55,764 bases of DNA from NCBI GenBank assembly GCA_041650335.1, contig JBAZLK010000003.1, positions 1-55,764 on the forward strand, given 5' to 3'. How positions within the stretch are numbered: position 1 is the first letter of the stretch; each line of letters begins with the position of its first letter. Below, piece after piece: positions 16,332-51,497 of the stretch. Source of the DNA: Patescibacteria group bacterium. GTDB taxonomy: Bacteria; Patescibacteriota; Patescibacteriia; JAHIZJ01. Below the pieces are notes generated by a model. It made no database searches, was not told where the DNA came from, and was given only the letters and a program-made list of their open reading frames with translations. The position numbers and the translations under genes are program-made.

Positions 16332-16334
16332 AGG

Positions 16335-23286: not shown

Positions 23287-23337
23287 ATCACATAAATACT
23301 GCGACCCCTTTGGATCGTTGGTTATTATATACAGACA

Positions 23338-24267: not shown

Positions 24268-24323
24268 ACTGTATATTTTGCCTGAAATTCGTCATTTTGT
24301 AAAGCAATAATTCTTACAAGCAA

Positions 24324-24351
24324 GCAGGCGAGGATGATCATCCTCGCCTGC
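24324..24351. repeat. Perfect 28-nt palindrome (14-bp stem) at the 3' end of the giant-protein operon; terminator-like without a clean U-tract
   Basis: GCAGGCGAGGATGA|TCATCCTCGCCTGC, located 24 nt downstream of the stop at 24375. Confidence 0.6.
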
Positions 24352-24374
24352 GATTATTTGCCTAATACCTTGTT

Positions 24375-25733
24375 TTATGTCACCAGCGTCAGCCGATTCT
24401 TCTCTTTCTTCACCGGCACCCACTTGAAGCTGCCGGTCACCGAGTCGATATAGGCGACTTTCAAATATTTCCGGCCGAGGAGATTAGCCAGCTTCGTCCC
24501 GATCCGGGCTGAATCCGACTCGAGCATTTGGAGACGCTGTTTTAGTAAATATTGGAGCCAAAGGCTGTAAAACACCGGGTCAGCCGGCTGGACGTCAAAC
24601 TGGGTCAACGATTCTGGTCCGTATTTTTCTTTCAGATAATCCCGAAAAACGCCGTCGGTTTTCATGACCATGGCTAAATCCTGGGTTTTCGCCATCACAT
24701 GCAGGAACGCAATCACGCGATTTCGGTTATTGCCTCGCACCGCCTCTTCAAACTCCGGCCGGATGTTCAGCTGTTCTTGACCGACTCGTTTCAGGATACT
24801 TTTTTCCTCCTCATAGATCGCCTTTTGCTCATCCGGGTTCTGGGAGTAGATTTTCAGGAGATTCTCGACGCCGAGTTGCTTTCGGCCCGTTCCGGCGCCC
24901 GTTATCGGACCGGGTATTGCCGTCGGCGCGTTCGTTGCCTGCAGATCGATTTTATCCAACGCTTCACTGATTACGGCAATACTTTTTTGTGATCTTTCAA
25001 ACTCGTTTTTGTAATTGATCAGGGTGCCTTCCCGAATCGTGCCGATGATATCGGGCAAATCGACCGGGGCGGCTGATTCGTATCCGGCCGGCGTATCGGA
25101 CGGAATTTTCAACCGTTCAGTCAGTTCAAAAAGTACTTGGAGTTTTTCTCGAGATTTCTTTGATAAACGGCGGGTGTTATCGCTTCCAACCAGGTAATTA
25201 GCGAGGTTTACGGGAGCTACCGGATTGAGGCCGAGAACGATGGTTTCATCAAGGAGCCAGTTTTTTATTGATCCGGGCTGTTCCTTGCCGTCTTTCGTTA
25301 CCGTTTCCTCGGTTACAACTTCCGTGTTTTCACGCAAGGCTTCTATTATTTCTTTCTTCAGTTTCTCGCGATCAGGAATCAGGATAATCGTCTCGAGTTT
25401 TTGGCGCACCTTTTCCTTCACGTCATAGCCGAATATTTGATACGTCAGTAAAAATGCATTTTTAAATAGCGGCACGATGATATTCCTGTCATAGAGCGGT
25501 AAGGCAACCCAGCGGCAACGCCGAACAATCGCGACGTAGGACTGGAAGAGTGGTGGATTTTCTGTTTCCAGCTGGGGCTGTAAACGCAAGAGGCGCGTTA
25601 GTGTTTCAGCCAGACGATAGGCTAATTGAAAATCGCCAAAATTTTCAATAAATTGGAGATGGGAATTATACCGCTCCAGCGTTTTCACGTCAGACAAGTT
25701 TGGCACTGGGTTTTTTGAAATTGGCTCGACCAT
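24375..25733 (-). CDS. Hypothetical soluble protein (last gene of the giant-protein operon)
   Basis: 452 aa, no TM or signal peptide seen, no family recognised. The start is 8 nt after the upstream stop. Confidence 0.7.
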   Translation of the reverse strand: MVEPISKNPVPNLSDVKTLERYNSHLQFIENFGDFQLAYRLAETLTRLLRLQPQLETENPPLFQSYVAIVRRCRWVALPLYDRNIIVPLFKNAFLLTYQIFGYDVKEKVRQKLETIILIPDREKLKKEIIEALRENTEVVTEETVTKDGKEQPGSIKNWLLDETIVLGLNPVAPVNLANYLVGSDNTRRLSKKSREKLQVLFELTERLKIPSDTPAGYESAAPVDLPDIIGTIREGTLINYKNEFERSQKSIAVISEALDKIDLQATNAPTAIPGPITGAGTGRKQLGVENLLKIYSQNPDEQKAIYEEEKSILKRVGQEQLNIRPEFEEAVRGNNRNRVIAFLHVMAKTQDLAMVMKTDGVFRDYLKEKYGPESLTQFDVQPADPVFYSLWLQYLLKQRLQMLESDSARIGTKLANLLGRKYLKVAYIDSVTGSFKWVPVKKEKNRLTLVT

Positions 25734-25741
25734 AAATTTGT

Positions 25742-28540
25742 TTACAATGGCACCATTTCGGATCCGGGCGCCGGCTGATCGGGTCCTCTATTTGTTACCG
25801 TTTTATCGATTTCGGACAACTCTCTGTTAATTTGCTCTAAGCGATCTTGGGAATTTTGACCGCCGGGCTCGCCGCTCGGACCGACGTAGCTCTTCAAGGC
25901 GTCGACAAATAAATCATACCGGTCAAGATTATGCTTAATGTAGACATCGTCCTGTTTATAATTTTCAAAACTCCCGATTGCTTTTTGGCTTTTTTCATCC
26001 ATTTCATCCCAATGTTTTCGCCGCGTCGCTTCGTTGTGTCCGGCGTATGTCCGCTGAACGTTTTGCCGCACGATTGCATTTTCACCCTCAAGTAGGTCAC
26101 TGTTTGACTTCACCATATGATAGGCCGTGCTCGGGTTAAACCGGTTATTGGCCATGAGTTTGATAAAGGAAGCCCACTTTTCCGACAATTGCTGGACGCC
26201 ATAGGCGGTCAGCCGGGCGTAGCGTCCCTTCGTCGGATCATTTGGATCGAAATGCCGCTCTTCCATAAAGGCCAAACGGTTGCCTTGACGAATGAGGTTT
26301 TCAAAATCGCGCTTGCCCATTTCAACGTTGACCCGCGCCTGTTGTTCGCTTTTGCCGCGTTGATAAAACGTACCGTCGCTCCGCATGCCGTTAGCCTGAC
26401 CAATGTTCCAGTGATTGGTCGACTCAGCCATATTGCTGACGTCATTTTCCAGCGCCAAAGCCGCTTGTTTATCATCATGCAATTGCTTCATGAGAACGTC
26501 GCGGAAAAACGCATGCGCACCATGGATACTATCGGGTAAATATTCGCCTTTCTTTACGACGGCCGCTCCCTTGCCTTCCCAATGTTCGGGGTTAAAGCCA
26601 TGTTCGGCAATGTAGGCGTCCCGTTCCTTTTCGTCCATGAAGCCGCCAGCATGAACCTTTTTTCCATCCGCGTCAACGCCGCCCATATGTTCATAATAAT
26701 TGTCCGATGAACGAGCAGCGTACATCATCGCCTCATTTTCATGGCCGACCCGCGCCGCTTGCAACATGATTGCCCGGACCGCCGATAAATCGCCACGCGC
26801 CACCGCGCCTTGGATTAATGAGATTAATTCTTCTTCGTTGGTCGTGGCATATTTCTTTGATTCCTCGCTATCAGCCGCCCGACGCATCTGTTGCCCCATA
26901 AAATCACGCGGTTTATACGCTTCCCAGCCGGCCACCTGTTCTTTCAAATTCTGCACGGCGGCTCTTTGGGCATTATATTCCGGATGTTCCGATTCCGCCT
27001 GGGCCAACGCCTCATCATCACTCATGCCACCAGCTCTTAATTCTTCTGCCCGGCGTTGAATGTCGTCTTCAGTTCCACGCAGATGATCCTGGGCTTCGCT
27101 CAACTGGCCTTCTTTACGCTTTTGGAAGGGTTCGCGCACCCAGGCCTTAATCCCTTTATTATAGAACAATCCCTGCATGTACGTTTCGGCAAATCCCGGC
27201 GCGCCAGCCGCTGTCAGTGGCGTCCAGAGCCGACCTTGTCGCAACCGCTCGTCGGCAAAAATATTCCCTTCGCGTTCCTCTCGAGCACGTTTCCGTTGCA
27301 AACCTGCTTTTAAGTTGTTATAAATATTCGCCGGATTCAGCTCGAGACCTTTACCAACACGTTGAAAACGCGTACCGGGTATCGACAGCGCGCCGGATTT
27401 AATTTTACGCGCTCCCCAGCCATACGCGGTTCCCGGCGCCCGAGCCAGCCACGCACCCGTGGCCGCCGCCATCCCGCCAGCCACCTTTGACCCCAGCCCG
27501 CTCCCAATCGTCCGCGTCTGCTGGGCAGCCATGACGGCGGCGTACAGCAAACCAATGGTCACAAAATAACTCATTAAATTGTCCGAAGTCGACATTTCCG
27601 AGATACCCGCGGCTAAACCGGTTGATTCCTGGCCTGCCTCGACGAACGCTCGCGTGCCCTCGGGTATGCCCTGCGTGATCTCCCGACCGACATTGCCTGG
27701 ATTTGTCGCCATAACCGCCATTGCCAGCCATAGATAAAAAGCGATAATTGGCCCAACCGTCACGTAATTACCGAACGTACTCCACCACTGGGTAGCCGCC
27801 TTCTTCAACGGACTAATCATTTCCCCAAGATAGGCCAGGGGCGACAGTACCACTAGGATCCAGAGCACGATGATCCGGCCGAGTAAAATAAAGATGATCA
27901 TGAGCACGGCGCCGATCATGAATAACAACAAGAAGATGCCAAGAGCGACGGCGGCGAATGCCTCGCCGACACTGGCGATCGCGCCCGTATCAGTTTCCTG
28001 AGCAAACATGAGCACCTTCTGCAGCCCGCTCGACGTTGTTAGATTCGCGGCGGCGGCATCGGCGAAACGCGAGGTAAAGGTATTCATGATGACCTGGCAC
28101 AGATCGATGAAAAAGCCGGCGATCGTCTTTGAAAAGTTCAGCAAGAACGCCATGATAATAAACTTCGGCAGGGTGCGTTTATAATGATAGCTCTCGATCC
28201 GCAGCACAGTGCCCCAAGAAATAGCCAGCAGGATCAGAACGAGGAAGACATTGCACATGTCGCGCACCACCACCCAGCCTTTATCAACCGCCGTTGTGTG
28301 GACAAAGTTATTAAACTGGACAAACGCCAGCATGATGTTGATCAGGACAACCAGGAGCTTCCCGAGCAGCGAGAGGATCATAAAGAACGGATAGGTCACC
28401 CACATCAGGATCCGATCGGTGATGCCCATCGCGGCGTGGATCGGCGTCCAGGTCACGAGAATACCGGCCAGCACGAAAATGCAGACGATCAGAATCGTGA
28501 GGCGCTGGGTTTTTCTTGTGGGTTGAAAGTTGATTTTCAT
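25742..28540 (-). CDS. Polytopic membrane protein (possible TrbL/VirB6-like N-terminal domain) with ~580-aa soluble C-terminal region
   Basis: 932 aa. About 7-8 TM helices in the first ~340 aa, with LLNFSKTIAGFFIDLCQVIMNTF reminiscent of TrbL/VirB6-type proteins (tentative). The remainder is charged and helical with no recognised domain. Confidence 0.7.
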   Translation of the reverse strand: MKINFQPTRKTQRLTILIVCIFVLAGILVTWTPIHAAMGITDRILMWVTYPFFMILSLLGKLLVVLINIMLAFVQFNNFVHTTAVDKGWVVVRDMCNVFLVLILLAISWGTVLRIESYHYKRTLPKFIIMAFLLNFSKTIAGFFIDLCQVIMNTFTSRFADAAAANLTTSSGLQKVLMFAQETDTGAIASVGEAFAAVALGIFLLLFMIGAVLMIIFILLGRIIVLWILVVLSPLAYLGEMISPLKKAATQWWSTFGNYVTVGPIIAFYLWLAMAVMATNPGNVGREITQGIPEGTRAFVEAGQESTGLAAGISEMSTSDNLMSYFVTIGLLYAAVMAAQQTRTIGSGLGSKVAGGMAAATGAWLARAPGTAYGWGARKIKSGALSIPGTRFQRVGKGLELNPANIYNNLKAGLQRKRAREEREGNIFADERLRQGRLWTPLTAAGAPGFAETYMQGLFYNKGIKAWVREPFQKRKEGQLSEAQDHLRGTEDDIQRRAEELRAGGMSDDEALAQAESEHPEYNAQRAAVQNLKEQVAGWEAYKPRDFMGQQMRRAADSEESKKYATTNEEELISLIQGAVARGDLSAVRAIMLQAARVGHENEAMMYAARSSDNYYEHMGGVDADGKKVHAGGFMDEKERDAYIAEHGFNPEHWEGKGAAVVKKGEYLPDSIHGAHAFFRDVLMKQLHDDKQAALALENDVSNMAESTNHWNIGQANGMRSDGTFYQRGKSEQQARVNVEMGKRDFENLIRQGNRLAFMEERHFDPNDPTKGRYARLTAYGVQQLSEKWASFIKLMANNRFNPSTAYHMVKSNSDLLEGENAIVRQNVQRTYAGHNEATRRKHWDEMDEKSQKAIGSFENYKQDDVYIKHNLDRYDLFVDALKSYVGPSGEPGGQNSQDRLEQINRELSEIDKTVTNRGPDQPAPGSEMVPL

Positions 28541-28566
28541 TATTTGCCGATGAATCGACGTCTTCG

Positions 28567-31500
28567 TTATTGCGTGATCACGATACTGCCATCAAAAAGG
28601 CTATTGCAGTATGCACCCGCGCCCTGACACTGCCCCTGATTCTGACAGATGCTCAGCGGAGTAGTGCCGCCGCGACAGGCGCCCACGCAGGTACCACCGC
28701 CACAGTTCTGATCGCTCGAACAATCAGCGCCTGTGTTGTCGCAATACCCGCTGCCCTTGTCCCAATTATCTTCAACAAAGACACGGACATAGCAGGTATC
28801 GGGACCGCCGCCGGCTGCTCCGCAATCTCCATAGGTATAGTCATGCGTCAAGGTATGATACGGCCCATTCGGGTCTGACCGCGGCGGGATACCGGGATTC
28901 TTTGGAAATGATTCCCAGTGGTTATTCCCCCAGTCAACAACAAACTTCTTGATCGGCATTTGCTCGGGATCGACCATGGAATTGAAGGTGACTGTGGCCG
29001 TGCCTGACCCATTCTTGATTTGCACCGGTCCGGTCCGGCCGTTGATCTTAATATTGAATACCGTTGGTTGCGCCCAGCAGAAATCAAACGGAAAGCCGGT
29101 GATGTCGTTCGGCCGATTATCCGACAGACCGCCTGAACCATTATGGACTTTGCATTGCTCCATCGCATTAAAGGCATTTGTATAGGCGGCTTTAAACGAA
29201 TTCAGGCTGAGGTCTGGCTCATACTTGGCCTCGGTCGGGTCTGGCGCCGAATCAGGCAAGCCGTTGCAATATTGTAGTTGTTTGCTTTGGCCATGCTGCG
29301 CTTGGATATGGCCGAGCGTGCAATTATCACCCGATCGGATGCCGCCTTCGCATTCCCAGTCGGCACATTCAGCGACACCGTTCGTACACGCACCAGGCAC
29401 TTCACAACAATCGGTTGCGTCTTGGCCGACCCGACATGGATTGCCGAGTAGATCGCCGCCCGTGCAAATACCGTTGTATTGGATACATGACCCGCCGGAA
29501 ATACCCGTGCAATTTGAGTCAGAGGCACAGGCTTGGCCGCACCAATAGCCGCAACCGGGTGGATTGCCGTTTTCATTCCAACCGCAGATCGCCTCGGCGC
29601 AAGAGCCTTCAGGGCAATCCCCCTGTCCTGAGCACGGTCGTCCGGCGTTAGTGCCACCGACGCAGACTTTATCAACACAGGAACTCCCAACCTCGCATGA
29701 GCCGTTTCCGCAGTTGGCGCCGCTGCCGCTGCATCGTTCCTTCTCTTCGCAAACCCCACCGTTACATACGCCGGCGTCACAACGGGCGTTATTTAAGCGG
29801 CAAATATCGGCATTAGCAATGCAGTTTTGTCCGCCCGGACAATAATTTGCCGGCTGATTATTCGAGGCACACAACGTACCCGCCGGGTTCCCGCTGCAGA
29901 CGCCGTCGGCGCAGAAGCCGCTTCGGCAGTCGCATTGGCCGATCGCGTCGTAGGTACATTTTAAGTTGATATTACAGGAATACCCGGCCGGGCAGGCCTT
30001 GGCCGGCAAACACGTGACGGTATGATCGCCAGAACAACGATCCCGGTTCCAACAAACCTGCGCGGGGTTTGCAAATAAACACAGAATACCGGCATTGCAA
30101 TCCGCATCTTGTATGCATTGCGTACCCGGATAATCACCAAAACCGTCGACATTATTATCACAATACTTGGAACAATTTTGTCCGGCATTGCAATCCAAGC
30201 CAGTATCTTTGCAGATTGAGACACTGGCACAGCTACCAATATTCGGACAATCGCAGGCTGCCGGGAGGTTCGATACGCACTTCTTCAGCGCACCTTGTAT
30301 CAAACACGACGAACCGGTCGGACAATTGTTGGCAATGTTGCACTGATCACTGCCGGCGTCTGCTCCACCGACGCACCGTTGGGCGACACAGGCGTTGCCG
30401 CCGCCCGGGCAGGCACCGAGACCGCACGGTATCGTCGGGTCATTGCTGCAGCGCTGGCTCATCTCGCAGACTTCGCCCGGCGCACAGCCGCACGGCGTCA
30501 TCGGACTTGGGTTGTCCGGGTCATTGCTAATACAGAGCTGACCTGAACATACGCCGTCGCCGATATTACACTCATCGTTGTTTTCACACCCAGTTCCTCT
30601 GAACGGGTATTGCGGATCATTGGCCTTGAAGCAGCCCATCGTCGTGATATCGACGCATTTGCCGTCAGACCATACCCAGACGCCGTAAACATCAGCGAAG
30701 ATCCGCTGGATGCGTCGCAATCCTAAACCTCCGCCCGTGGCCGTGTAATTCGTCGGCGGCTGGTTCGGTGGCGGCGGTTCACCCGGAGTTAACGGGCCGC
30801 TGAATTGTTCCGTCGCTGTATAGCGATTTGGGAAGACGTCATCGCAAATAGTTATTTCCGACCGGTCATAACGGAAGCCGGTCCACCAGCCCCAGCTATA
30901 CAACCGTTTATTGGCTTTGTGCTTGCATGAATATGGAACGCCAGCGCGCGGATAGCTAAGATAGTCAACCTCGTCAAAGCCGTGTTCTACACCCCGGTAC
31001 GGCGTCCAGCCCCAGTCCTGAGCGAAGGGCGAGAATGAACCCCCGCCTGTTTGCTGCTGCGGATCCCACCAGAGATAGATGATCGGTTGGTATTTCGAGC
31101 CCAGGTCCTTGGTCATTTCATACGGATTGCCCCAGACTGACGTGTAGTCCGTATCCCAGGTCGCCGGGTCGCCCGGTACGTTGGTCACATTATTCCCGGC
31201 ATGGCCAACTGAACCCGGGTAGGTCAAACTGCCGTATGGATTTGCATCATCGTTAAAGGTAACGCCAAGATCCCAAATCTGGGAGTAATTTCCTTTTATC
31301 CGCTCGGCCCAGGCCTTGTTCTGTCCGCTCGGATCGACTGTCTGACCGATCACATCACAGCGGTATGCGAGCACCTCGCCGATGTTTCCCGGCCAGGCTT
31401 CGCCGAGATGATTATGGCTTAGCCAACCGTCAAACGGTTGCCAAACACCCGGCGCAATTGGATTGAGTCCGTTTTGGTGGTTTGAATCCCACCAGTTATA

Positions 31501-34500
31501 CTGGAGGTTCTCACCGCCGCCGCCGCTGTGTGACCAGTATTCGCAGACATCAGAATCCGGTATTTCGTTCGGCACGCAGACATATAGGCATTTGTCCTGA
31601 TGGCCGCCGCCGCGGATGGCTTTTTCACAGAGCTTGCGATGATAGCCGAGCTCTTCGCAGGAATAGTGATTAGCATAATTGCAATTGCCATTGGAGAGAC
31701 CGTACGGCCGCCGGAACTCGTAGAACGATCCTTGGAGGCAGTAGTAGAGCGGCGCATCGCCAAAATAGCCGACCAGCTGATCCGTATCATCGGCTTCGCC
31801 GGAAATGACGTCAACCGGCCACCACTGCAGACAGATACTGCGGTTTTTCGGGTCGGTTTCGAGGCAGTAGCCTTTCCAGCCGCGATAAATCTTCCGCGCC
31901 GTACCGGTGGTCTTGGTATAGTCGCATGACAATGAGTTTGACTCCGGATAGAGCCGGCACGACCTGACCACAAAACGGGGATCGTTTGGAAGCTCGGGCG
32001 GCATCTGCGTGGATTTCTTTTCCAGCAAGGTCTGGAACATCACGTCATCCACCTGGAATTTTTGCAGTCCGGCGTTTCCACCCGCGTCCACAATACTGAG
32101 ATAGGTATTTTTAAATACCCCGTTGACAACCATCGCATTGCCAAGCGGCAAGGTAAAGATCTGCCAATTCATCGTGGCCGTAACCGTGCCAAAAATCTGA
32201 CACGGTCCCGCATCATCGTTATAGCAAAGCTGAACTTTTATCTTCGAATCTTGATCCGCTCGCAATTTCAGACTAATGACCAGCGGCTGGTTATCAAATA
32301 TGAGTGAATCGAGATTGATCTTCGCTCCCGAATCAGCGCCGGTCAAACCGCCCACCTCCATCACCCAGTTCTGTTTTGTCGGATCAAGCGGGTCTTCGAC
32401 CGCCTTCAGGGCGTTCGGCGGGTTGATGTTCCGCGGCTCCCAGGGCGAGGAGTTCTTAAACTGAAAGTCGTAATTCGGCAAATTCATACCAATGCCGATT
32501 TCTTGCATTGACCCGGTTGGGTAATACCCGTGGATGACCTGACAGACATTAGTCTCGCCGACACACTGATCGCAATAGGTCGGATTATTGAGATCGCACG
32601 CCGTATTATTTGGGCAAACGCCGCCGGGACAGTCGTCTGGTACCTGGCAGAGCATGCCATCCTTATCGCCGCCCTGACAGATGCCGTCGCGCCAGCAGAC
32701 CGTGTTTGAGTCTTCGCTGCACCGCCAATTATAGCCGACCCGCGCGTAGCCTGAATAATTTACGGAGTTGTCAACTTCCGTTTTATGATCAAATGTCAGA
32801 TCGGTCGGGTGCGCCGGCGGCGAAACCAGTCGATTCATATACTCGACGGTCGGGGTGGCATTTTCAAATTTCGGCGTTCGAATGCAATGAGAGGTCAAAC
32901 CACAATCGGCATCGATGAGACAGGGTCGAGAGGGATCGTTTTCACATTGCCCTTCACCGACCGGCTTGATGCACTGGCCGGACGTGCCGAGCTGACGACA
33001 GTTCCCGATATCATAACAGGTTAGTTCCTTCGAACCGTCGCTTTTCTCCACTTCGTAGCTCGTCTTGCAGTACAACCACTGATTACAGACCCGATCACGA
33101 TCAACTTTATAGACGCTGTTGGAATCGGCCGTGCATCCACCGCCGCCCGCGCACGTCTCCGGCGTTCCTCGGTTTGTATCCAGTTTCGCGTATGTTAAAT
33201 CGCTATCATAGGTAAGACCCTGTGAATTGGTGGTGTCGTTGAATAGCATGCACCCTTCATCTTTATTGACCACGCCAGCGCAACTCGCCGAGTCAAGCGT
33301 ATTATCAATATAATAGTAAGGTTGGCAGCCAGACAGATACTCGGGCGGGAGGGCGTCGTTCTGATAGGGCCGGCACTGTTGATCCGTCCGGTAAAACTCG
33401 CCCTGGTCGTTGTACTCAGCCCGGCAATTTGCGTTGCAGCCTTGGAAAACACAGGTGCTTTGAGGACAGTCAGCGTTGATTTTACAATTCTGCCCTCCGT
33501 TCGGGCCAGCTAAACAGACGCCGTCTGGCGTTACTTTATCTGGTGACGGCGTTTGGGGATCGCGATACTCACTGCAACCGCTGGCGCCATTTTGACATTT
33601 ACCAACCCAATACTCGGTACATTTCTGACCGGCTGGACACTGGCCATCGTCTTGGCATATCTTTTCTGCACAATAGCCGTCATTCGAGCTGTTCGCGTCG
33701 GCACAGCCATATGCGGCATCGTTTGGATCGGCGTCAGAATCGCAGGCTTGCCCGGCGCGTATTCCGCCATAACAGACTTCCGTCAAGTCGGAGCATAGGC
33801 CGTCGTTATTGCCGCTCGCCTGATCACAGCCATAGAGCGGATCTTTCGGATCAACTTGCGAATTGCATTTTTCTCCGGCCCGATAGCCGCCACGGCACGT
33901 CTCTTGCAGCCGCGGTCCACAGACCTTCGTTGGCATCGGCGATTCTGGATATTGCTCGCAGAGGCCACCGTTACATGAGGCCAGATCCCCCGGACCGAAG
34001 CACGCCGCGCCCGGATTATTTCCGCCAATACAGGAGTATTTTTGGACGGGACAGAATTTATCCGTTCCGCTCTTCAGCCAGGTATCATAAACCTCGCCTT
34101 GATATTTGAGACTCTTACGGAAATCGCAGACTTGGGCGTTCGGCTGCTTAAATTGCGTATAACTTCCGGAATCAGCGCCAATTTGGAATTGATCGCAGAA
34201 TGTTTCTTCTTTCGTACAGAGTGTTTGGTCGTACTCGTCGGGATTATTGATGAGATAGGTCGTCTTGAATTTCGTGACCCGGCCTTCCACGTCAAAACTC
34301 GGCAAACCAAGGCCTTCGCAACCCTTCGCCTTGGCTTGGCATTTATACTTCGCCGCGTTGACGACCGGCCGGACATTGTCCGCTTCTACTTTTACGCCTT
34401 TGTCTGCCGGCTCATAGGGGAAAGCTGTGGTCGAGTTGTGCGTTTCAATAGCGGCGGTACAGCCGACTTTCTCGGGCCGACAGAGATTCGTGAAGCTCTG

Positions 34501-37500
34501 AATATATTGATCGTTCCCTTCGCTGTCCGTATAGAGCGAGCAACCAACCCATTGGGCTGGGCATTCCTGATAGGTTTTGTACCGGAGATAAACGCTATCG
34601 CGGGTTTCCCAAACCGTAATATTATCAATAAAGAAGCCGGCGCCCGCTTCGATCGTCAGTACCTCGGCCGGGTCAGGCGCGCCAACAAAATGGGCAGGGC
34701 CGAGAACATAATGATTCCAATTCTCGTTGGTCGCAGTCACGCCAGCAACCGGCACAAAGTTTACTGCCGGGTTCGGTCCAAATTTCACCGTGATCTGGGC
34801 ATCGTCCGCTTCGGCCTTTGCCCAGAATTCAATCATGTAATCCTTGCCATCTTCAACCAGCTCACTAACAGCCGTTGACATATTGGGGGTTACCTTGGCT
34901 GAGCCGCCGCCGGCCTTGAGAGATTCCGTGCTCCAGGTGACGTTACCGGTCCAGCCGGCCGTATCGCCATCGTCAAAATTATCCGTGATGATCTTCCGAA
35001 TATTGTAACCAGTGCTCCCCCGATACTCGCGGCAGGCTGCCTGGTTAGCCGGACAGCGCACGCCCTGGTCGGGGATTGCATTATAAATTGTGTTATCGAG
35101 GGTATTCCGGAGCGGGTGGCAGTCTTCCGAACAGGTGATGGTGTTAAACATCGGGCAATAGTAGCTGTTGCCGCTCTGGTCATAGTATTGGGTGCAGCCG
35201 AAATCGTTCGGATCGCAACCGCACGCCCCGCCAGCCGTCATTTCGGGCGGTGAATTTGTGCTTCCTTTCAAATCCTCTGCGACCAGCTCAAATCCGTTGA
35301 CGTCATCGCCTTCCCAGCGATAGTAGGTCGCGCAGGTCGGATTCGGTTGTTCGCAGCGGCGGATGGCGCTGTAATACTCAAGCCCCTCGCCGCCCTGGGC
35401 GACGATATCGAGATTGGTATATTCTTCACAACCGACATAGGCCGCGTCGCAGGTTTTTCCCGTCGTGGCGATAAAAGTCGTCGATAATATTCCCGACCGG
35501 TCAACTAACGCCTGGTCAGTGCCATTTGAGACGGGCATCTGCTGATAATCTTTGCACCCGACAAATTCAGCCGGACAATAATCATCCGCGGTCACCACCG
35601 CCGGCACCTTATCGCCTTTTTCATCAGGCGTGTACATATCGCACCCGACTTCATCTACCCGGCAAGCGATCGAATCCTTCGACAAGCTGACGCTCACCTG
35701 GTCAAATTGTCCGCCGCTCAATAAAACCCTGATAAACGCCGCGTCCGGTTTATCGGCCTCAACCCCGAAGGTGACAAAATCCCATCGGCCGGTGTTTGTT
35801 TCACGCTGAGCGCGCGGATCGGCGCCAGCGACCGTCAGGTCACAGTCGGGAACCACGGCCCGGTTCTTATCACGACATTCGGTGAGGAGCGGGGTAGCGC
35901 CGCCGCCTTTCACCCAAGCCGAAACGTCATAGCGCGTACCATAGACGATCGGTACGTCCTGATATCCGCCGGAGCCGGAGTAATAATCCCCATATCCTTG
36001 CGTGGCATCGATGGCGGTACCAACCCAGCCGTCGGCTTGATGGTCGCCGGCGACATAATTGTCATTTGTGTCGTCTTTATAATAATCATGCCCGCTGTCG
36101 ATACTGAAGCTGGAATTCGAAATGTAATTTTCCGCTTTATTTTTCAAATACGCTTGATTAGCCGTGTCATACATCGCATAGGACGTGACCTCGCCCAGCT
36201 CAAGCTGAACGCCGTCAAGCGTAATCTCGCAATTCGGAAAAATTTTAAAAGCCACTTGGTTTGGATTTGAAGTCGGCGCAGGCGGATCCGTGTCGCCGAC
36301 CTCGCCAAACTGGCCGGTCACAACAACTCTCGACCAGCCGTCCGCGCTCGCCCGGTGGGAATCCAGCGGATCGACGTAATTCATCCAAGCCCCGCCGGTG
36401 TGGTTTCCGCCGATCTCAACGTGGATATTGTCACACGCGCCTTTTGCAAAGAAAGATGCGGTAAATTTCTTATGATAGACCGGCGATTCAGTGTCAAAGT
36501 AATACGCCGCCTCGCCGCTTGTCCGAACGGCGTAGGTACCATCCGTAGCATCGGTTGTTGCAAAGGTGTCACCGGCGAACTCCCATTTCCACTGCGAGTA
36601 ATCGGCCGCGAAGACGTCTGGATCGTTATCGTCGGCTGTCCCGGTAAACGTTTCAAAGCTTGAATTGGCCGCGAGATTACTCCCGGCGATAACGGGAATA
36701 TATTCCGTGCAACCACGATCACCGCTCGAGCACTTCATGACATTATTATCCAATCGGATCTGATCGCCGGCCGCGAGATAGTCAGGCTCGGCCGGATTGA
36801 CCAAATGCTCCGGGGAGCTGCAGACAAAGCCTTTTTCCTTATTATCATAATTCTGGCAGTACCATTGACAGCCGGCGTTATCCGCCGAGCAGGAATCGTG
36901 ATTGACCGTGCTCTCAATGAAAGATACTTCCTTGTTCTTTGAATCAATAAAGGTTTGGCAGGTATTTTCATAGGCCTGACAGGCGGTCCCGGAAAATCGC
37001 CAGATCGGTTTTTCCTCAGCGCAGTAGCCATAGAACAAGCAGGTGCCGTCATCGGCTTCCTGAATGCAGGTACGTTCATCGGCACAGTAGCTTCCCCGTT
37101 CAACCTGCCGCGACGGCGTGTCGCGAGAATCGATTACCCCGTCGCCGGTGGTATCATCCAGTTGGACCAGCGCATCAGCCACCAGCTGCTCGCCCGGCCC
37201 TTCTTTTTTGCAATATGTTTCGGGCGCCTTCAGCACCCAGTTTGGATCAATCAGGTGATAAAACGGATTATCTATTTGAACGCCCTGGGGATTAGTCCAT
37301 TTTTCATCATCATACAGATCGACCAGCTCTTTCAACCCAAATCCCTGGGCTGGCACAACGTAATTTTTTATATAGAGCGCGGCCGCTTCCCAGGTCGAGG
37401 GGATGACGCGATATTTACGCAGGATAACCAGGCTGCGGTAGGGATAGCCGTTGGTATATTCCGGCTCTTGTCCATTTTGATCAAAACCAAACGTGCCCGT

Positions 37501-38622
37501 ACTGTTGAGCGAGCCTTCTTCAAGAGCTTGTTTGACCGTGATGCGGCGATTAATCGCGTCCGCGAAGTTCTCGTCGATCACGCAATTATTGGTCACGCGG
37601 TACTCGCTCGGACAGGCGGCGAGTTCGCTCACGATATCGACCGGTCCGCGCGCTCGAAAAGTTGGTCGGACAAGTTCGGCAAAGTACCGTTTGGCCGCGG
37701 AGACGCCGCTTGTTGTCATTTCAAAGCTATCTCCGCCTGACGGAAGGACGCCTTTTTCAAAAATTGTTTTGTAGAGCCGGCTGATCAAGGTGTTGGTGAA
37801 CAAGGAAAACGCATCGGCCAGCGGCTCGCCCGTATAGACTTTGTCGGCGGCCGTACTTTCTTGGATTGACAGGTTGGCAACCGTGTTGACGTATTCTTTT
37901 GGCGTTTTCGTAATGCCGGTCACCAAATCCTTCACGCCGAGAAAAGAGCTGGCTGTCTGCTCTAAACGCATTTTTGCTTCCGCTTTTGCGACCGCCTTTT
38001 CGGTCTCATCCATGATCAAGAAGTAAGCGCCGATTTGCGATGACTTAACATCAAAGACGTGCTGAAAATCGACCATGTCCTGAAGCGACATCTTGGATAT
38101 CTTGTTGAAATTCTTGGCCATGTTCGTCACCGGACAGGAAGCTTTCGGCTCGAGTGTTTGCTTGGCGTAGACACCGAGCTTTAAACGAATGGCCGGATCG
38201 AATGATATCGTACACAGGCTCTCGCCGAAAAGGCTCTGAAATTCCGTATCGAGAAATTCGCCAGCCGCGCCGTCGGCAACCTGAGTGAGATACTTTCCGG
38301 GGTTTGAGATGAAGAGGGGTTTCTGCCCTTTACCGCCCGAGCCGATGTAGACGGCGGTATCATAGGCGATCTTATTTAAGAAATATGAAAGACCTTTTTT
38401 CCAAGCCACGGCCGCGGCGCTTTTCAGTACCTTATATATGGCGTCAGTGACATTGCGATGCTCTTGAGCAACGTCTTCAACGGGAATAACGGCTTGAACC
38501 TTGGTTGGGACAAAATAAAACACTCCCAAGCTAACAACGAGTGAGAGCGATAGCATAACGCCGACGACAAGAGCGCGTAATTTTTTAGCTCGGTCTTTTG
38601 TTTGAGAATGGCTCTGTGACAT
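28567..38622 (-). CDS. Giant (3351 aa) membrane-anchored, extremely Cys-rich surface protein with CBM4_9-like and PKD-like modules
   Basis: Single uninterrupted ORF. N-terminal anchor KKLRALVVGVMLSLSLVVSLGVFYFVP. At least four jelly-roll/CBM-like modules start near aa 648 (NSSFETFTG), 830 (NSSFSIDSG), 1210 (DNFDDGDTAGW) and 2047 (YDFQFKNSSPW). Dense Cys arrays occur throughout. A PKD-like module lies near aa 3165-3260 (VTFNSMVDPEQMPIKKFVVDWGNNH...HTLTHDYTYG). Confidence 0.9.
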   Translation of the reverse strand: MSQSHSQTKDRAKKLRALVVGVMLSLSLVVSLGVFYFVPTKVQAVIPVEDVAQEHRNVTDAIYKVLKSAAAVAWKKGLSYFLNKIAYDTAVYIGSGGKGQKPLFISNPGKYLTQVADGAAGEFLDTEFQSLFGESLCTISFDPAIRLKLGVYAKQTLEPKASCPVTNMAKNFNKISKMSLQDMVDFQHVFDVKSSQIGAYFLIMDETEKAVAKAEAKMRLEQTASSFLGVKDLVTGITKTPKEYVNTVANLSIQESTAADKVYTGEPLADAFSLFTNTLISRLYKTIFEKGVLPSGGDSFEMTTSGVSAAKRYFAELVRPTFRARGPVDIVSELAACPSEYRVTNNCVIDENFADAINRRITVKQALEEGSLNSTGTFGFDQNGQEPEYTNGYPYRSLVILRKYRVIPSTWEAAALYIKNYVVPAQGFGLKELVDLYDDEKWTNPQGVQIDNPFYHLIDPNWVLKAPETYCKKEGPGEQLVADALVQLDDTTGDGVIDSRDTPSRQVERGSYCADERTCIQEADDGTCLFYGYCAEEKPIWRFSGTACQAYENTCQTFIDSKNKEVSFIESTVNHDSCSADNAGCQWYCQNYDNKEKGFVCSSPEHLVNPAEPDYLAAGDQIRLDNNVMKCSSGDRGCTEYIPVIAGSNLAANSSFETFTGTADDNDPDVFAADYSQWKWEFAGDTFATTDATDGTYAVRTSGEAAYYFDTESPVYHKKFTASFFAKGACDNIHVEIGGNHTGGAWMNYVDPLDSHRASADGWSRVVVTGQFGEVGDTDPPAPTSNPNQVAFKIFPNCEITLDGVQLELGEVTSYAMYDTANQAYLKNKAENYISNSSFSIDSGHDYYKDDTNDNYVAGDHQADGWVGTAIDATQGYGDYYSGSGGYQDVPIVYGTRYDVSAWVKGGGATPLLTECRDKNRAVVPDCDLTVAGADPRAQRETNTGRWDFVTFGVEADKPDAAFIRVLLSGGQFDQVSVSLSKDSIACRVDEVGCDMYTPDEKGDKVPAVVTADDYCPAEFVGCKDYQQMPVSNGTDQALVDRSGILSTTFIATTGKTCDAAYVGCEEYTNLDIVAQGGEGLEYYSAIRRCEQPNPTCATYYRWEGDDVNGFELVAEDLKGSTNSPPEMTAGGACGCDPNDFGCTQYYDQSGNSYYCPMFNTITCSEDCHPLRNTLDNTIYNAIPDQGVRCPANQAACREYRGSTGYNIRKIITDNFDDGDTAGWTGNVTWSTESLKAGGGSAKVTPNMSTAVSELVEDGKDYMIEFWAKAEADDAQITVKFGPNPAVNFVPVAGVTATNENWNHYVLGPAHFVGAPDPAEVLTIEAGAGFFIDNITVWETRDSVYLRYKTYQECPAQWVGCSLYTDSEGNDQYIQSFTNLCRPEKVGCTAAIETHNSTTAFPYEPADKGVKVEADNVRPVVNAAKYKCQAKAKGCEGLGLPSFDVEGRVTKFKTTYLINNPDEYDQTLCTKEETFCDQFQIGADSGSYTQFKQPNAQVCDFRKSLKYQGEVYDTWLKSGTDKFCPVQKYSCIGGNNPGAACFGPGDLASCNGGLCEQYPESPMPTKVCGPRLQETCRGGYRAGEKCNSQVDPKDPLYGCDQASGNNDGLCSDLTEVCYGGIRAGQACDSDADPNDAAYGCADANSSNDGYCAEKICQDDGQCPAGQKCTEYWVGKCQNGASGCSEYRDPQTPSPDKVTPDGVCLAGPNGGQNCKINADCPQSTCVFQGCNANCRAEYNDQGEFYRTDQQCRPYQNDALPPEYLSGCQPYYYIDNTLDSASCAGVVNKDEGCMLFNDTTNSQGLTYDSDLTYAKLDTNRGTPETCAGGGGCTADSNSVYKVDRDRVCNQWLYCKTSYEVEKSDGSKELTCYDIGNCRQLGTSGQCIKPVGEGQCENDPSRPCLIDADCGLTSHCIRTPKFENATPTVEYMNRLVSPPAHPTDLTFDHKTEVDNSVNYSGYARVGYNWRCSEDSNTVCWRDGICQGGDKDGMLCQVPDDCPGGVCPNNTACDLNNPTYCDQCVGETNVCQVIHGYYPTGSMQEIGIGMNLPNYDFQFKNSSPWEPRNINPPNALKAVEDPLDPTKQNWVMEVGGLTGADSGAKINLDSLIFDNQPLVISLKLRADQDSKIKVQLCYNDDAGPCQIFGTVTATMNWQIFTLPLGNAMVVNGVFKNTYLSIVDAGGNAGLQKFQVDDVMFQTLLEKKSTQMPPELPNDPRFVVRSCRLYPESNSLSCDYTKTTGTARKIYRGWKGYCLETDPKNRSICLQWWPVDVISGEADDTDQLVGYFGDAPLYYCLQGSFYEFRRPYGLSNGNCNYANHYSCEELGYHRKLCEKAIRGGGHQDKCLYVCVPNEIPDSDVCEYWSHSGGGGENLQYNWWDSNHQNGLNPIAPGVWQPFDGWLSHNHLGEAWPGNIGEVLAYRCDVIGQTVDPSGQNKAWAERIKGNYSQIWDLGVTFNDDANPYGSLTYPGSVGHAGNNVTNVPGDPATWDTDYTSVWGNPYEMTKDLGSKYQPIIYLWWDPQQQTGGGSFSPFAQDWGWTPYRGVEHGFDEVDYLSYPRAGVPYSCKHKANKRLYSWGWWTGFRYDRSEITICDDVFPNRYTATEQFSGPLTPGEPPPPNQPPTNYTATGGGLGLRRIQRIFADVYGVWVWSDGKCVDITTMGCFKANDPQYPFRGTGCENNDECNIGDGVCSGQLCISNDPDNPSPMTPCGCAPGEVCEMSQRCSNDPTIPCGLGACPGGGNACVAQRCVGGADAGSDQCNIANNCPTGSSCLIQGALKKCVSNLPAACDCPNIGSCASVSICKDTGLDCNAGQNCSKYCDNNVDGFGDYPGTQCIQDADCNAGILCLFANPAQVCWNRDRCSGDHTVTCLPAKACPAGYSCNINLKCTYDAIGQCDCRSGFCADGVCSGNPAGTLCASNNQPANYCPGGQNCIANADICRLNNARCDAGVCNGGVCEEKERCSGSGANCGNGSCEVGSSCVDKVCVGGTNAGRPCSGQGDCPEGSCAEAICGWNENGNPPGCGYWCGQACASDSNCTGISGGSCIQYNGICTGGDLLGNPCRVGQDATDCCEVPGACTNGVAECADWECEGGIRSGDNCTLGHIQAQHGQSKQLQYCNGLPDSAPDPTEAKYEPDLSLNSFKAAYTNAFNAMEQCKVHNGSGGLSDNRPNDITGFPFDFCWAQPTVFNIKINGRTGPVQIKNGSGTATVTFNSMVDPEQMPIKKFVVDWGNNHWESFPKNPGIPPRSDPNGPYHTLTHDYTYGDCGAAGGGPDTCYVRVFVEDNWDKGSGYCDNTGADCSSDQNCGGGTCVGACRGGTTPLSICQNQGQCQGAGAYCNSLFDGSIVITQ

Positions 38623-38629
38623 GGTCGAA

Positions 38630-39472
38630 CTATTGATTTACACCGTTGATCGACTCAAGAAAGATGGCCTTGAGCGTTGCGTCGTCAATCTGCGACAGCG
38701 TTTCCGCCGGCACGCCCGAGGCAATCATTAATTCCCTGATTTCGGCCGGCGTAAGCTGGCTCAGTTGCGCCAGTGTCTGCTGATCGGTTTCGTTCAAATT
38801 CGAGGCATTCGTATTGTTCGTTACCGGCAGATTGGTGTTGCTGTTTGTCGACTCTTGGGAAAGCGCCTCGGCATACAGCTGCCGGAGCTCGACGTCGGAC
38901 AAGGCATTGAGCGTTTCGGCTGGCACGCCAGCCCCCTTCAGCGCATCCCGGAGCGCGCTTATGGAAACGTCCTCTGGAGCAGGGTTGGTATTCGAGTTTC
39001 CAGTGGTGTTCGTGTTGCCGTTTTGGTTGCTATTTGTGTTTGTTTGTTGATTGGTATTTTCCCCCGCGTTGACGTTCGTGTTTTGGTTGATATTGTATAA
39101 ATTTGCGAGATTGCTATAGCCATTCGTGTTCGTCACTGCAATGGTGCAGGATTTTCCCTGCGGACAATTCGGATCGGTGCCATTTGCCAGCTCCGTGTTA
39201 TCGGAAATCCCGTCGCTGTCAGAATCAGCCAGATAGGGAGAGGTGCGATGAATTTTCAATTCATCAAAATCGGAAAGGGTATCATTGTCGGTATCCTTGT
39301 CGCGCAAAGCAAGGATTTCTTTCCGCGCATTTACCGAATCAGAGGGTGACTCGGTCAACCCGGCAAACGGACTTTTTAGAGAGCGCGAGAGCTGAAAAAT
39401 TCCCAAACCTATTCCGAAACAGCCCACCACAAAAATGAGCGACCAGAGAGTTTTTGGCGAGACTTCTTTCAT
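38630..39472 (-). CDS. Membrane-anchored protein with thrombospondin type-3 (Ca-binding) repeats, Asn/Thr-rich spacer and GVPAETL repeats
   Basis: 280 aa. N-terminal TM. DKDTDNDTLSDFDE and DSDSDGISDNTELANGTDP are DxDxDGxxDxxE-type repeats. N/T-rich low-complexity stretch. Two copies of a (A/S)GVPAETL(N/S)x(L/I)(S/D)D..L motif. Confidence 0.8.
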   Translation of the reverse strand: MKEVSPKTLWSLIFVVGCFGIGLGIFQLSRSLKSPFAGLTESPSDSVNARKEILALRDKDTDNDTLSDFDELKIHRTSPYLADSDSDGISDNTELANGTDPNCPQGKSCTIAVTNTNGYSNLANLYNINQNTNVNAGENTNQQTNTNSNQNGNTNTTGNSNTNPAPEDVSISALRDALKGAGVPAETLNALSDVELRQLYAEALSQESTNSNTNLPVTNNTNASNLNETDQQTLAQLSQLTPAEIRELMIASGVPAETLSQIDDATLKAIFLESINGVNQ

Positions 39473-39545
39473 TTTGTTTATTGGCTTTTGTTTGGACTTT
39501 AAATATAGAAACTAAACTCAGAAACTGTGTATATTTTACCCCACC

Positions 39546-39574
39546 ATTATATCACAATAGCCCTCGTGTGTCAA
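39546..39574 (-). promoter_or_regulatory. Perfect-consensus sigma70 promoter of the giant-protein operon
   Basis: Minus strand: TTGACA (39574..39569), exactly 17 nt, TGaTATAAT (extended -10; TATAAT = 39551..39546). About 65-nt leader to the ATG at 39472. Confidence 0.65.
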
Positions 39575-39575
39575 C

Positions 39576-40421
39576 TTAATGACTTTTGCCAATATTAGCC
39601 ATTAAACTATTTTTGCTGAGTTCATATAAAGCCCCCCATTGTGCCAAAGAAAGTTCTTGCGCCCGCGCGTTTTGGGGTACTTTGCATTTGTCAAATAATT
39701 CTGTCAGCCGCTCGCGGGTCAGGTGAAAACCAGCACTCAAGTTGTTATGCAGTTGTTTCCGCCGGGCTGAAAAGCCGACCCGGAGAAATCGAAAAAAATC
39801 TCGGTCCGAAGACTGCGGCTCTCGTTTTACAGTAATTCGCACAACCGCAGAATCAACCTCGGGTGGTGGCCAAAAGCTCGTCCGCGGTACCATAAAAAGT
39901 TTTTCAACCGCGCCATAGAACTGCACTGAGAGTGAGAGGAGGCTGTGCTCCCCGGGCTGGGCGACGATCCGATCAGCTACCTCGGCCTGAACGAGTAGTA
40001 CCAGCCGCACTGGTTGCGGTTTTTGCGAAAGAAACTCTCGAATAATCAGGCTGGTGAGATAATACGGAATATTCGCAACGATGAGATAGCCGCGGTGAGA
40101 GAGTGCGGATGGCTGCTGCTTCCGCCAACGGATAACATCGTCTCGTATGAACTGGACATTGTTCGCTGGGCCGACATTTTTATGGAGGAGCGGGATCATA
40201 CTCCGATCGTTTTCGATCGTGACAACGCGACCGGCCGCCGGTGCCAAAAGCCGAGTCAAATTCCCCGGCCCAGACCCGATCTCGAGCACGGTGTCGTCCT
40301 TCTTCAGTCTGCCAGCGGCAGCAATTCGTTCCAGAATCTTTTGGTCCAACAGAAAACACTGGCCGCTTTTTTTCGACGGGTGGAGACCAAGTTCATGAAG
40401 CTGCTTTTTTATATCCATCAC
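39576..40421 (-). CDS. rsmA: 16S rRNA (adenine1518/1519-N6)-dimethyltransferase
   Basis: 281 aa. SAM motif VLEIGSGPGNLT; IVANIPYYLTS. Confidence 0.9.
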   Translation of the reverse strand: MMDIKKQLHELGLHPSKKSGQCFLLDQKILERIAAAGRLKKDDTVLEIGSGPGNLTRLLAPAAGRVVTIENDRSMIPLLHKNVGPANNVQFIRDDVIRWRKQQPSALSHRGYLIVANIPYYLTSLIIREFLSQKPQPVRLVLLVQAEVADRIVAQPGEHSLLSLSVQFYGAVEKLFMVPRTSFWPPPEVDSAVVRITVKREPQSSDRDFFRFLRVGFSARRKQLHNNLSAGFHLTRERLTELFDKCKVPQNARAQELSLAQWGALYELSKNSLMANIGKSH

Positions 40422-46845: not shown

Positions 46846-47022
46846 GATCACGACACAATTAATTAATCGACGGCTCGTCTTCAAAAGCATATCATTTTTT
46901 TAGGGTTTTGCCACGTGAAAATCCATCATACGACTATACCTTGACAGTACCGGCCTCACATGATAACCTACTAAATATCCAAACGAAGTGATGCGATAAC
47001 GTAGCTAATATTAGCCAATTAA

Positions 47023-48396: not shown

Positions 48397-48422
48397 ATCA
48401 CCATATTTCGTGGTTCTGAAAA

Positions 48423-48450
48423 GTCGGCCAAATGGCCGTCTTTTTTTGTT
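48423..48450 (+). terminator. Rho-independent terminator after the M23 gene
   Basis: GTCGGCC-AAAT-GGCCGTC hairpin followed by TTTTTTT. Confidence 0.55.
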
Positions 48451-51478: not shown

Positions 51479-51497
51479 GCTTCGATACGAAGTTTCG

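Follow-up and report, generated by a model that had tools for sequence, protein, structure and literature searches.

In the 55,764-nt stretch of a Patescibacteria group bacterium analyzed here (assembly GCA_041650335.1, contig JBAZLK010000003.1, positions 1 to 55,764; hereafter the window), four consecutive genes encode a membrane-anchored protein with thrombospondin type-3 (TSP3) repeats (gene 1), a giant cysteine-rich protein (gene 2), a polytopic membrane protein of the VirB6/TrbL type (gene 3) and a soluble protein of 452 amino acids (gene 4, p452). We consider it probable that this cassette is the envelope/surface and channel arm of a chromosomal type IV secretion system (T4SS)-like machine, related to the Gram-positive MPF-FATA systems, in ABY1-type Patescibacteria. 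A first-pass annotation of the same DNA had held that no described system has this architecture; that statement falls, because about 40 related loci have genes for PrgI/VirB3, a TrsD-like protein and VirB4 directly adjoining the cassette, which may hence be read as one arm of the T4SS already described for Patescibacteria (PMC10633639, PMC12102498).

To describe the synteny of the cassette, we used contigs with homologues of the VirB6-like protein, 87 loci in total. Diverse ABY1-type Patescibacteria share the gene order TSP3, giant, VirB6, p452. In the five contigs inspected (L001, L003, L005, L006 and L007), whose VirB6-like proteins are 25-64% identical to that of the window (values of 64%, 33%, about 34%, 42% and 26%), the VirB6-like gene has a giant gene with CBM_4_9 similarity (2758-3395 aa) on its upstream side and an unannotated gene of 345-459 aa on its downstream side. 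Where the flank is long enough, a TSP3 gene is found ahead of the giant gene; the outer neighbors of the cassette vary. Among the 87 loci, tblastn matched the middle of the giant protein in 61, its N-terminal domain (N-domain) in 45, aa 2600-3351 of the giant in 32, p452 in 43, in which it follows the VirB6-like gene directly, and the TSP3 protein in 23, the last count being limited by the 10-kb flank; in these 23 loci, nearly all of those whose flank extends there, the TSP3 orthologue is found directly 5' of the giant gene. Of the 70 loci with room upstream, 44-55 have a giant homologue on that side of the VirB6-like gene, and an open reading frame (ORF) of at least 1500 aa lies within 3 kb upstream in 44 of the 70 loci that have more than 3 kb there. 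The four-gene order first seen in the window is thus held in all five inspected contigs and across the larger set. With one genome scanned per GTDB species, relatives of the VirB6-like protein turn up in at least 536 species genomes, and the taxa named among them are Kerfeld-, Falkow-, Komeili-, Veblen-, Buchanan-, Magasanik- and Uhrbacteria, which we take to belong to the class ABY1 from record names and GTDB knowledge rather than from a phylogeny.

The link to secretion comes from what lies beyond p452. In 40-43 of the 87 loci, a Pro-rich cytoplasmic protein, PrgI (VirB3), a TraC/TrsD-like protein and VirB4 are encoded within 4-7 kb downstream of the cassette. On an 881-kb contig (L057), nine genes follow one another on one strand, with gaps of 2-53 nt save one of 240 nt, in the order TSP3, giant (2865 aa), VirB6-like (1222 aa), p452-like, a 521-aa protein, PrgI, TraC_F_IV-like, VirB4 and a lipoprotein, and Pfam recognizes PrgI, TraC_F_IV and P-loop_TraG/AAA_10 in this row. 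Loci with and without an adjacent VirB4 arm interleave in a neighbor-joining tree of VirB6 N-domains; because of this interleaving, we regard the VirB6-like protein of the window as an orthologue of the T4SS VirB6, not a separate paralogue, in a locus that has been split several times. The VirB3/VirB4 arm of this genome is not adjacent and would have to lie elsewhere. Two further genes of L057 are conserved, unannotated flank genes of VirB3-TrsD-VirB4, namely those for the 521-aa Pro-rich cytoplasmic protein (15197..16762) and for the lipoprotein of 184 aa with an LTAC lipobox (19825..20379); the latter could correspond to the VirB8-like component that has been reported from ABY1.

The product of gene 3 has about seven hydrophobic helices within aa 1-345, followed by a hydrophilic, charged tail of about 590 aa. 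Its 69 homologues, all named ones from Patescibacteria, include some that carry PF04610 (TrbL) or PF19590 (TrbL_3) and one that is labeled VirB6-like by the Joint Genome Institute (JGI); scanned singly, 9 of 43 match TrbL PF04610, with a best E of 1.1e-5. The family profile aligns with a VirB6-like protein from a Bacillus mycoides plasmid (hhalign probability 93.3%, E 2.7e-7). This protein has 1344 aa, bears the name "type IV secretion system protein" and is encoded between PrgI-X-VirB4 and a lysozyme-family gene; sequence and profile searches of the PDB returned only chance or coiled-coil-type matches. Because the family profile aligns with this T4SS protein and homologues match TrbL, the gene 3 product appears to be an extended VirB6/TrbL homologue of the Gram-positive type, and the TrbL/VirB6-like flavor first noticed in the 932-aa protein is borne out. 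The role first proposed for it, a platform exporting the giant protein, is better replaced by that of a T4SS translocon component, the giant having a Sec signal of its own.

The protein encoded by gene 4, described in the first pass as a soluble unknown, indeed lacks a signal peptide, a transmembrane (TM) segment and any Pfam or NCBIfam family, with only a sub-threshold match to PAS. A profile search of 1.84 billion representative proteins gave 1789 matching clusters (50% identity), of which 365 reach E<=1e-30; most members have 420-480 aa. A very confident AlphaFold2 (AF2) model from a 73-member alignment (predicted local distance difference test, pLDDT, 93.1) shows two helical domains (aa 16-240 and 289-450), both of which close with a small beta-sheet. 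This model has no Foldseek match at E<=1e-3 in the PDB or BFVD, no Pfam family is shared among the 73 members, a profile search of the PDB again gave only chance or coiled-coil-type matches, and ten longer fusion variants yielded a single isolated weak Pfam match, to NOG1_N. The p452 protein is predicted to be a cytoplasmic two-domain helical protein of an uncharacterized family.

Two lines of evidence connect p452 with the tail of the VirB6-like protein. In two proteins of 752 and 769 aa (P0134 and P0177), a VirB6-tail-like N-terminal region, which matches aa 755-974 of P0018 and aa 669-813 of the gene 3 product, is fused to a p452 domain, and neither protein has a signal or a TM segment. These fusions may be taken as a Rosetta-stone link between the VirB6-like and p452 genes; because they lack signal and TM segment, and because the tail of gene 3 starts with a cluster of positive charge, this tail probably lies in the cytoplasm, where it would be functionally linked to p452. 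The second line is a hypervariable block that covers most of the tail and the N-terminal domain of p452 (Table 1; 11384..13672 in L001). DNA identity between the window and its nearest relative (L001/L008) is about 90% upstream of the block and 84-90% downstream, and within it a single 191-nt match to L001 remains, at 70.7%. In the same comparison, the giant proteins are 95.7% identical, the VirB6-like proteins 86-100% over aa 1-400 and 18-74% over aa 400-932, and the p452 proteins 24-54% over aa 1-300 and 92-98% over aa 301-450. Followed across the block, protein identity goes from 96-100% to 18-74% and then returns to 92-98%. Other pairs of loci are alike, with, for example, 80-86% identity in the TM domain of the VirB6-like protein versus 28-40% in its tail. 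Because the collapse in identity spans both regions, the tail and the p452 N-domain seem to behave as one fast-evolving or recombinationally exchanged block, and such strain-level hypervariability points to a specificity determinant.

The giant protein contains 192 Cys (5.7% of its 3351 aa), and 29 complete giant proteins range from 1967 to 3229 aa with 3.2-4.4% Cys. It had been described as TM-anchored. Its N-terminal hydrophobic segment ends in an AxA-type site (KVQA/VIPV, the slash marking the site) that is found at the same alignment position in giant homologues, and since this site is conserved, a cleavable Sec signal is more likely than an anchor; the C-terminus has no TM segment, hydrophobic tail or sortase/LPXTG motif. 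In a conservation profile from an alignment with 25 complete homologues, the N-domain is the best conserved part, with the motifs GGKGQKPLF, YPYRSLVILRKYRVIP and LIDPNWVLKAP ahead of the first Cys knot, and conserved blocks (the base at aa 1-600 and core blocks at 1000-1500, 1800-1900 and 2200-2300) alternate with variable inserts. The N-domain has no Pfam match, a homologue search with this domain alone gave only 12 fragmentary matches, and tblastn with it against 72,556 plasmids gave none.

Pfam was run on the giant both whole and as 400-aa segments. CBM_4_9 (PF02018) matches the whole protein at 31.5 bits (cut-off 25.9, E 2.7e-7), and the segment scans resolve three or four weak modules that score 14.7-21.8 bits, each below the cut-off, with weaker copies than that of Table 1 near aa 876-909 and 2050-2154. 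No match to PKD (PF00801/PF18911) was found on the C-terminal segments at E<=1, and thus of the CBM-like and PKD-like modules initially proposed only the former stand. A hairpin motif, Cx5GCxxY, occurs 11 times, versus 1.55 +/- 1.3 in shuffles, brackets the jelly-roll modules and is kept in homologues. The most Cys-dense region (15 Cys per 100 aa) has an alignment occupancy of 0.1-0.4 and is essentially lineage-specific, and the bin aa 3201-3300, in the C-terminal module that the first pass had taken as PKD-like, has an identity of 0.24 and an occupancy of 0.70. The sequence of the giant finds nothing in the PDB; Pfam gives no SLH/S-layer match in the whole or the segments and no PrgB adhesin or Ig domains, and Pfam and NCBIfam give no RHS/YD, RTX, toxin, peptidase or nuclease domain. 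Ordinary S-layer, RHS or MARTX families, which the first-pass annotation had named as the competing identity, are matched in Pfam by neither of the two large proteins. The giant, a Cys-rich and probably exported protein with similarity to carbohydrate-binding modules (CBMs), is plausibly used for host contact; of the earlier picture of a carbohydrate-binding adhesin with a dedicated exporter, this part survives and the exporter does not, the protein having its own Sec signal.

The product of gene 1 is bitopic, with a single TM segment at aa 8-26, TSP3 repeats at about aa 57-105, an N/T-rich linker and two helical repeats of about 35 aa. Pfam places it just above the cut-off for TSP3_bac (PF18884; E 1e-5, 25.7 bits versus 25), its orthologue in L057 scores 41.6 bits, and NCBIfam gives weak matches to the TSP3 regions of MtsD and CglD, in line with its first description as a TM-anchored TSP3-repeat protein. 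The TSP3 region is predicted to be extracellular and to bind Ca. We considered a lipoprotein (VVGC, Cys18) and rejected it, the Cys lying within the TM helix and being absent from a homologue. On one JGI contig of 3068 bp, a single ORF (P0073, 895 aa) joins the TSP3 protein to the N-terminus of a giant that keeps its own signal peptide; this might be a true fusion, or else the result of a lost stop codon or an error of gene calling. As this is a single case with its own signal peptide kept, and a probable read-through or gene-calling artefact, we set it aside as evidence of interaction.

The four ORFs agree exactly in coordinates, sizes and gaps (7, 26 and 8 nt) with what the first pass had reported, and no hairpin is found at the junctions between them. 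In a scan of both strands over 18 kb (23000..41000), the putative sigma-70-type promoter before gene 1, read from 39574 to 39546, is the sole 12/12 match and has an upstream TG, and the palindrome behind gene 4 is the strongest hairpin, with 12 pairs, 8 of them GC; both signals noticed at the ends of the operon are therefore present and top the scan. The T-tail of the palindrome is weak (TTGCTTGT), and the palindrome is probably a bidirectional transcription terminator. As the simplest reading of the four genes, we infer one transcription unit of 15.2 kb.

Table 1. Position of the cassette, its parts and other features in the window (aa numbers are those of the encoded protein)
Feature	Position	Strand	Basis or remark
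Putative promoter, TTGACA-N17-TGaTATAAT	39546..39574	-	sigma-70 type; 73 nt 5' of first start codon
Gene 1, TSP3 protein	38630..39472	-	280 aa (ORF list)
Gene 2, giant protein	28567..38622	-	3351 aa (ORF list)
Giant aa 1-44, probable Sec signal peptide	38491..38622	-	hydrophobic segment and AxA-type site VQA/VI
Giant aa 45-560, conserved N-domain	36943..38490	-	alignments, conservation profile
Giant aa ~1211-1340, CBM_4_9-like jelly-roll module	34603..34992	-	Pfam
Giant aa ~2650-3100, extremely Cys-dense region	29323..30675	-	Cys profile, alignment
Giant aa ~3185-3290, moderately conserved C-terminal module	28753..29070	-	sequence, alignment
Gene 3, VirB6-like polytopic protein	25742..28540	-	932 aa (ORF list)
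Gene 3 aa 1-345, VirB6/TrbL-like membrane domain	27506..28540	-	signal-like helix, ~7 TM helices
Gene 3 aa 346-932, long charged tail	25742..27505	-	starts with positive-charge cluster
Hypervariable block	24878..27139		VirB6 tail aa ~468-932 and p452 N-domain aa 1-~285
Gene 4, p452	24375..25733	-	452 aa (ORF list)
Probable terminator, 28-nt perfect palindrome GCAGGCGAGGATGATCATCCTCGCCTGC	24324..24351	-	23 nt 3' of last stop codon
PEP-utilizers-domain protein	21844..23286	-	
SecD	20123..21787	-	PPIC-type rotamase insert, aa 143-235
538-aa protein	16335..17951	-	TM segment, Pro-rich C-terminus; upstream of VirD4-like ATPase
VirD4/TraD-like coupling-protein ATPase	14652..16331	-	TrwB_AAD_bind E 3e-12 (Pfam); SXT_TraD E 2e-14 (NCBIfam)
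452-aa and 632-aa proteins	7615..10931	-	G+C 0.60
parB and parA	1715..3362	-	left end of window
Leucyl-tRNA synthetase	43369..46890	-	1173 aa; Ham1p_like aa 265-339, NUDIX aa 611-725
Region of higher G+C	48000..54000		G+C 0.56-0.58

Several observations weigh against a T4SS arm with a docked, glycan-binding giant. No homologue of VirB3, TrsD or VirB4 is encoded in the window, and about 18 non-redundant relatives likewise have the cassette split from the VirB3/VirB4 arm; for these reasons, a T4SS function in this particular genome is an extrapolation from its relatives. The product of gene 3 itself reaches no Pfam threshold for TrbL, so its homology is transitive or profile-based. In one clade, VirB4-adjacent VirB6 genes have no giant homologue upstream, which implies that the giant is not obligatory for the machine. 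Contact of the giant with VirB6 or with the TSP3 protein is something we infer, and the evidence for carbohydrate binding is the weak similarity to CBM_4_9. The AF2 model of the N-domain is poor (pLDDT 54, confident only at aa ~323-473) and finds no fold in the PDB (Foldseek, nothing below E 0.85).

The separation of the cassette from VirB3/VirB4 could also mean that the machine is autonomous, with a co-opted VirB6-derived protein and a cytoplasmic partner that assemble, anchor or power a giant tether without VirB4 and other T4SS parts. The four genes are conserved as a unit with its own strong promoter and terminator, this unit is split from the VirB3/VirB4 arm in the window and in about 18 other non-redundant loci, and the split loci keep another recurrent neighbor, the proteins with a PEP-utilizers domain. 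Against this, in about 40 loci VirB3, TrsD and VirB4 adjoin the cassette with gaps of a few bases, and split and unsplit loci interleave, so that the same orthologue resides in a canonical T4SS locus in sister lineages. Moreover, dispersed T4SS genes are common in Patescibacteria (PMC12102498), and a giant with its own Sec signal needs no dedicated exporter. We judge an autonomous machine unlikely.

In virB operons, virB5 is found next to virB6, and the giant gene occupies this position beside the VirB6-like gene. It may thus be asked whether the giant and the TSP3 protein form a wall-spanning stalk or sheath of the T4SS, one that replaces the VirB7/9/10 core or parts of the VirB8/PrgC type, with the CBM-like modules bound to peptidoglycan or wall glycans of the cell itself. 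The conserved cores of the giant would suit a structural scaffold, no wall-spanning channel has been identified in monoderm T4SSs, and VirB8 homologues are seldom found among Patescibacteria (PMC12102498); but about one third of the giant is lineage-specific and highly variable, which is more typical of a host-facing adhesin, and some VirB4-adjacent VirB6 genes have no giant gene beside them, which leaves such a conduit improbable in our estimate. Far less probable still is a giant that is itself the cargo, an effector or polymorphic toxin with a variable toxic C-terminus whose neighbors serve its release. The C-terminal third is indeed variable and lineage-specific, and the T4SS of Patescibacteria has been suspected of protein export (PMC10633639). 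Nevertheless, the scans of the whole giant and its 400-aa segments detected none of the toxin-associated domains listed above, the gene after the giant encodes the VirB6-like protein rather than a small immunity-like product, T4SS substrates are recruited from the cytoplasm whereas the giant carries a Sec signal, and a content of 192 Cys speaks for a stable structural protein outside the cell.

If the cassette is the surface and channel arm of a T4SS-like machine, as we favor, the VirB6-like protein would form the membrane translocon platform, with its N-terminus outward and its tail of about 590 aa in the cytoplasm. There p452 would dock on the tail, and both would make up a polymorphic cytoplasmic module that perhaps sets substrate or partner specificity. 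The giant would leave via Sec and fold oxidatively outside the cell, and DsbA-type enzymes are encoded nearby. Its conserved N-domain would hold it at the machine through the outer face of VirB6, the putatively Ca-binding TSP3 protein or both, and the jelly-roll/CBM modules and variable Cys-rich distal parts would project outward and bind glycans of the host envelope. By analogy, the giant may correspond in function to the PrgB/PrgC adhesins of pCF10, or to VirB5 on VirB6, and would represent the adhesin or stalk missing from the Patescibacteria T4SS. The most specific form of this proposal, in which the giant is the missing T4SS contact organ, docked on VirB6 in the VirB5 position and binding glycans, and the VirB6 tail and p452 are a hitherto unknown, polymorphic and strain-swapped specificity subunit, is tentative, and we hold it to be rather doubtful in all its parts together.

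The T4SS of Patescibacteria is of an MPF-FATA-like type without a relaxase, has proved essential in Southlakia epibionticum and comprises VirB1, B3, B4, B6, (B8), D4 and VirB2-like pilins (PMC10633639, PMC12102498, PMC12857230); published surveys detected no PrgB-like adhesins (PMC10633639, PMC12102498). The published descriptions that we searched do not mention the giant protein, the TSP3 protein or the p452 family beside virB6, and other literature searches gave only general remarks on giant CPR (candidate phyla radiation) proteins that may mediate attachment. As in the described system (Wang et al. 2023; Quinonero-Coronel et al. 2025), the locus is chromosomal, VirB6, VirB3/PrgI, TrsD and VirB4 are encoded together in relatives, the VirD4-like gene stands apart, no relaxase gene was noticed here, and the proximity to parAB fits the reported origin-proximal location (near dnaA in some); in contrast, the experimental work was done in Saccharimonadia and the present cassette belongs to ABY1-type lineages. 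Giant surface proteins of Vampirococcus lugosii (PMC8080830) are also large exported proteins with interaction domains and a supposed role in host attachment, yet they are not linked to a T4SS or VirB6 and are likened here by description only.

With the MPF-FATA systems of pCF10 and of the B. mycoides plasmid p139 (our locus L088), the cassette shares an extended VirB6-like protein with a TM domain and a long tail, PrgI/VirB3 and VirB4 as neighbors in relatives, and surface-protein genes upstream of channel genes. The order in pCF10 is prgA/B/C ... prgH-prgI-prgJ, and the surface-protein genes of the cassette are collinear with prgA/B/C. Unlike these systems, the giant has no detectable similarity to PrgB/PrgC and no LPXTG, the operon encodes no relaxase, origin of transfer (oriT) or VirB1-like hydrolase, p452 has no counterpart in the annotation of the Bacillus locus, and the locus is chromosomal and probably not conjugative. 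The likeness to VirB5, which in Gram-negative T4SSs is a pilus-tip or stalk protein seated on VirB6, consists in a gene immediately upstream of virB6, a Sec signal and a proposed contact with the target cell, and is positional only: a VirB5/TrbJ-like match is absent from Pfam and from the PDB comparison of the N-domain model, whose low confidence limits that comparison and which draws this part as mainly helical, and the giant is about 15 times larger.

In the TraG-Eex specificity system of F/SXT elements, reportedly described by Marrero and Waldor in 2005 and 2007, the VirB6-family protein TraG and its exclusion partner Eex have cytoplasmic specificity determinants. The possible analogy lies in a VirB6-family membrane domain with a large extra domain behind it and in a polymorphic cytoplasmic region that resembles a specificity determinant; the differences are that no Eex-like small membrane protein was identified, that the polymorphism of the cassette is shared with a soluble partner and that no conjugation function is evident. 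On the whole, the cassette is best seen as an extension of the known Patescibacteria T4SS and not as a categorically new system, in which the N-domain family of the giant, the TSP3 partner, p452 and the polymorphic tail/p452 block appear to be the undescribed elements.

The cassette is preceded by ksgA, with MFS and Sua5 genes, and followed by genes for TerC/DUF475, a PEP-utilizers-domain protein, SecD, SecF and a sigma-70 r4/HARE-HTH protein; further downstream are a 538-aa membrane protein, the VirD4/TraD-like ATPase, one Trx/TraF-like and two DsbA-like proteins and lgt, and lspA lies near the opposite end of the window. All of the neighbors listed in the first-pass annotation (SecDF with a peptidyl-prolyl isomerase insert, a TraD-like ATPase, three DsbA/thioredoxin genes, lgt and lspA) are thus present, but the dedicated apparatus built from SecDF, DsbA, lgt and lspA is not upheld: only the nearest relative, L001/L008, likewise has SecDF, DsbA, lgt and TraD adjacent, and the neighbors in distant relatives are unrelated. 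We accordingly rejected SecDF, DsbA, lgt and lspA as dedicated partners, their synteny not being conserved, and a DsbA-type oxidase is an obvious generic requirement of a protein with 192 Cys. The supposed TraD-like ATPase pair is one ATPase together with the 538-aa membrane protein, which is no paralogue of it, has no Pfam or NCBIfam match and also stands next to the ATPase in L001. Both scores of the ATPase (Table 1) are far below the full-length NCBIfam cut-offs. It is the sole other T4SS-type gene in the window, lies outside the operon, adjoins the cassette only in the nearest relative and is a possible partner of the cassette. The small ORFs scanned in the window include no VirB2-like pilin array.

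The window has other features of interest. In SecD, the rotamase domain is inserted in the periplasmic P1 region, as in L001. Proteins of about 450-540 aa, in which a C-terminal PEP-utilizers mobile domain is the sole recognizable domain, are encoded downstream of the cassette in 18 of the 87 loci, often as 2-3 tandem paralogues (L006, 16189..20767; L007, 17552..20355), and 16 of these 18 loci have no trace of a downstream VirB3/VirB4 arm. In the leucyl-tRNA synthetase (LeuRS), the additional Ham1p_like and NUDIX Pfam matches are embedded among the catalytic, editing and anticodon-binding domains, which is uncommon as an insertion or fusion in this enzyme. The position of parAB suggests a replication origin nearby. 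A urocanase and a Mg-chelatase/ComM-like ATPase are encoded in the region of higher G+C, and the highest G+C of the window is found over two genes without significant annotation, of which that for the 632-aa protein has a weak match to SPFH/Band 7.

Patescibacteria possibly account for a quarter of bacterial diversity, and most of them seem to live in attachment to other cells. To our knowledge, their T4SS is the only one known to be essential for the growth of its owner, and we know of no identified cargo or mode of host contact. For ABY1-type lineages, which form a large environmental class, the cassette offers three candidates, namely a giant, possibly glycan-binding protein tied to VirB6, a putative Ca-binding tether and a partner of the VirB6 tail. 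A specificity determinant made of the tail and p452 could help to explain host range, or discrimination between self and non-self, in these uncultured bacteria.

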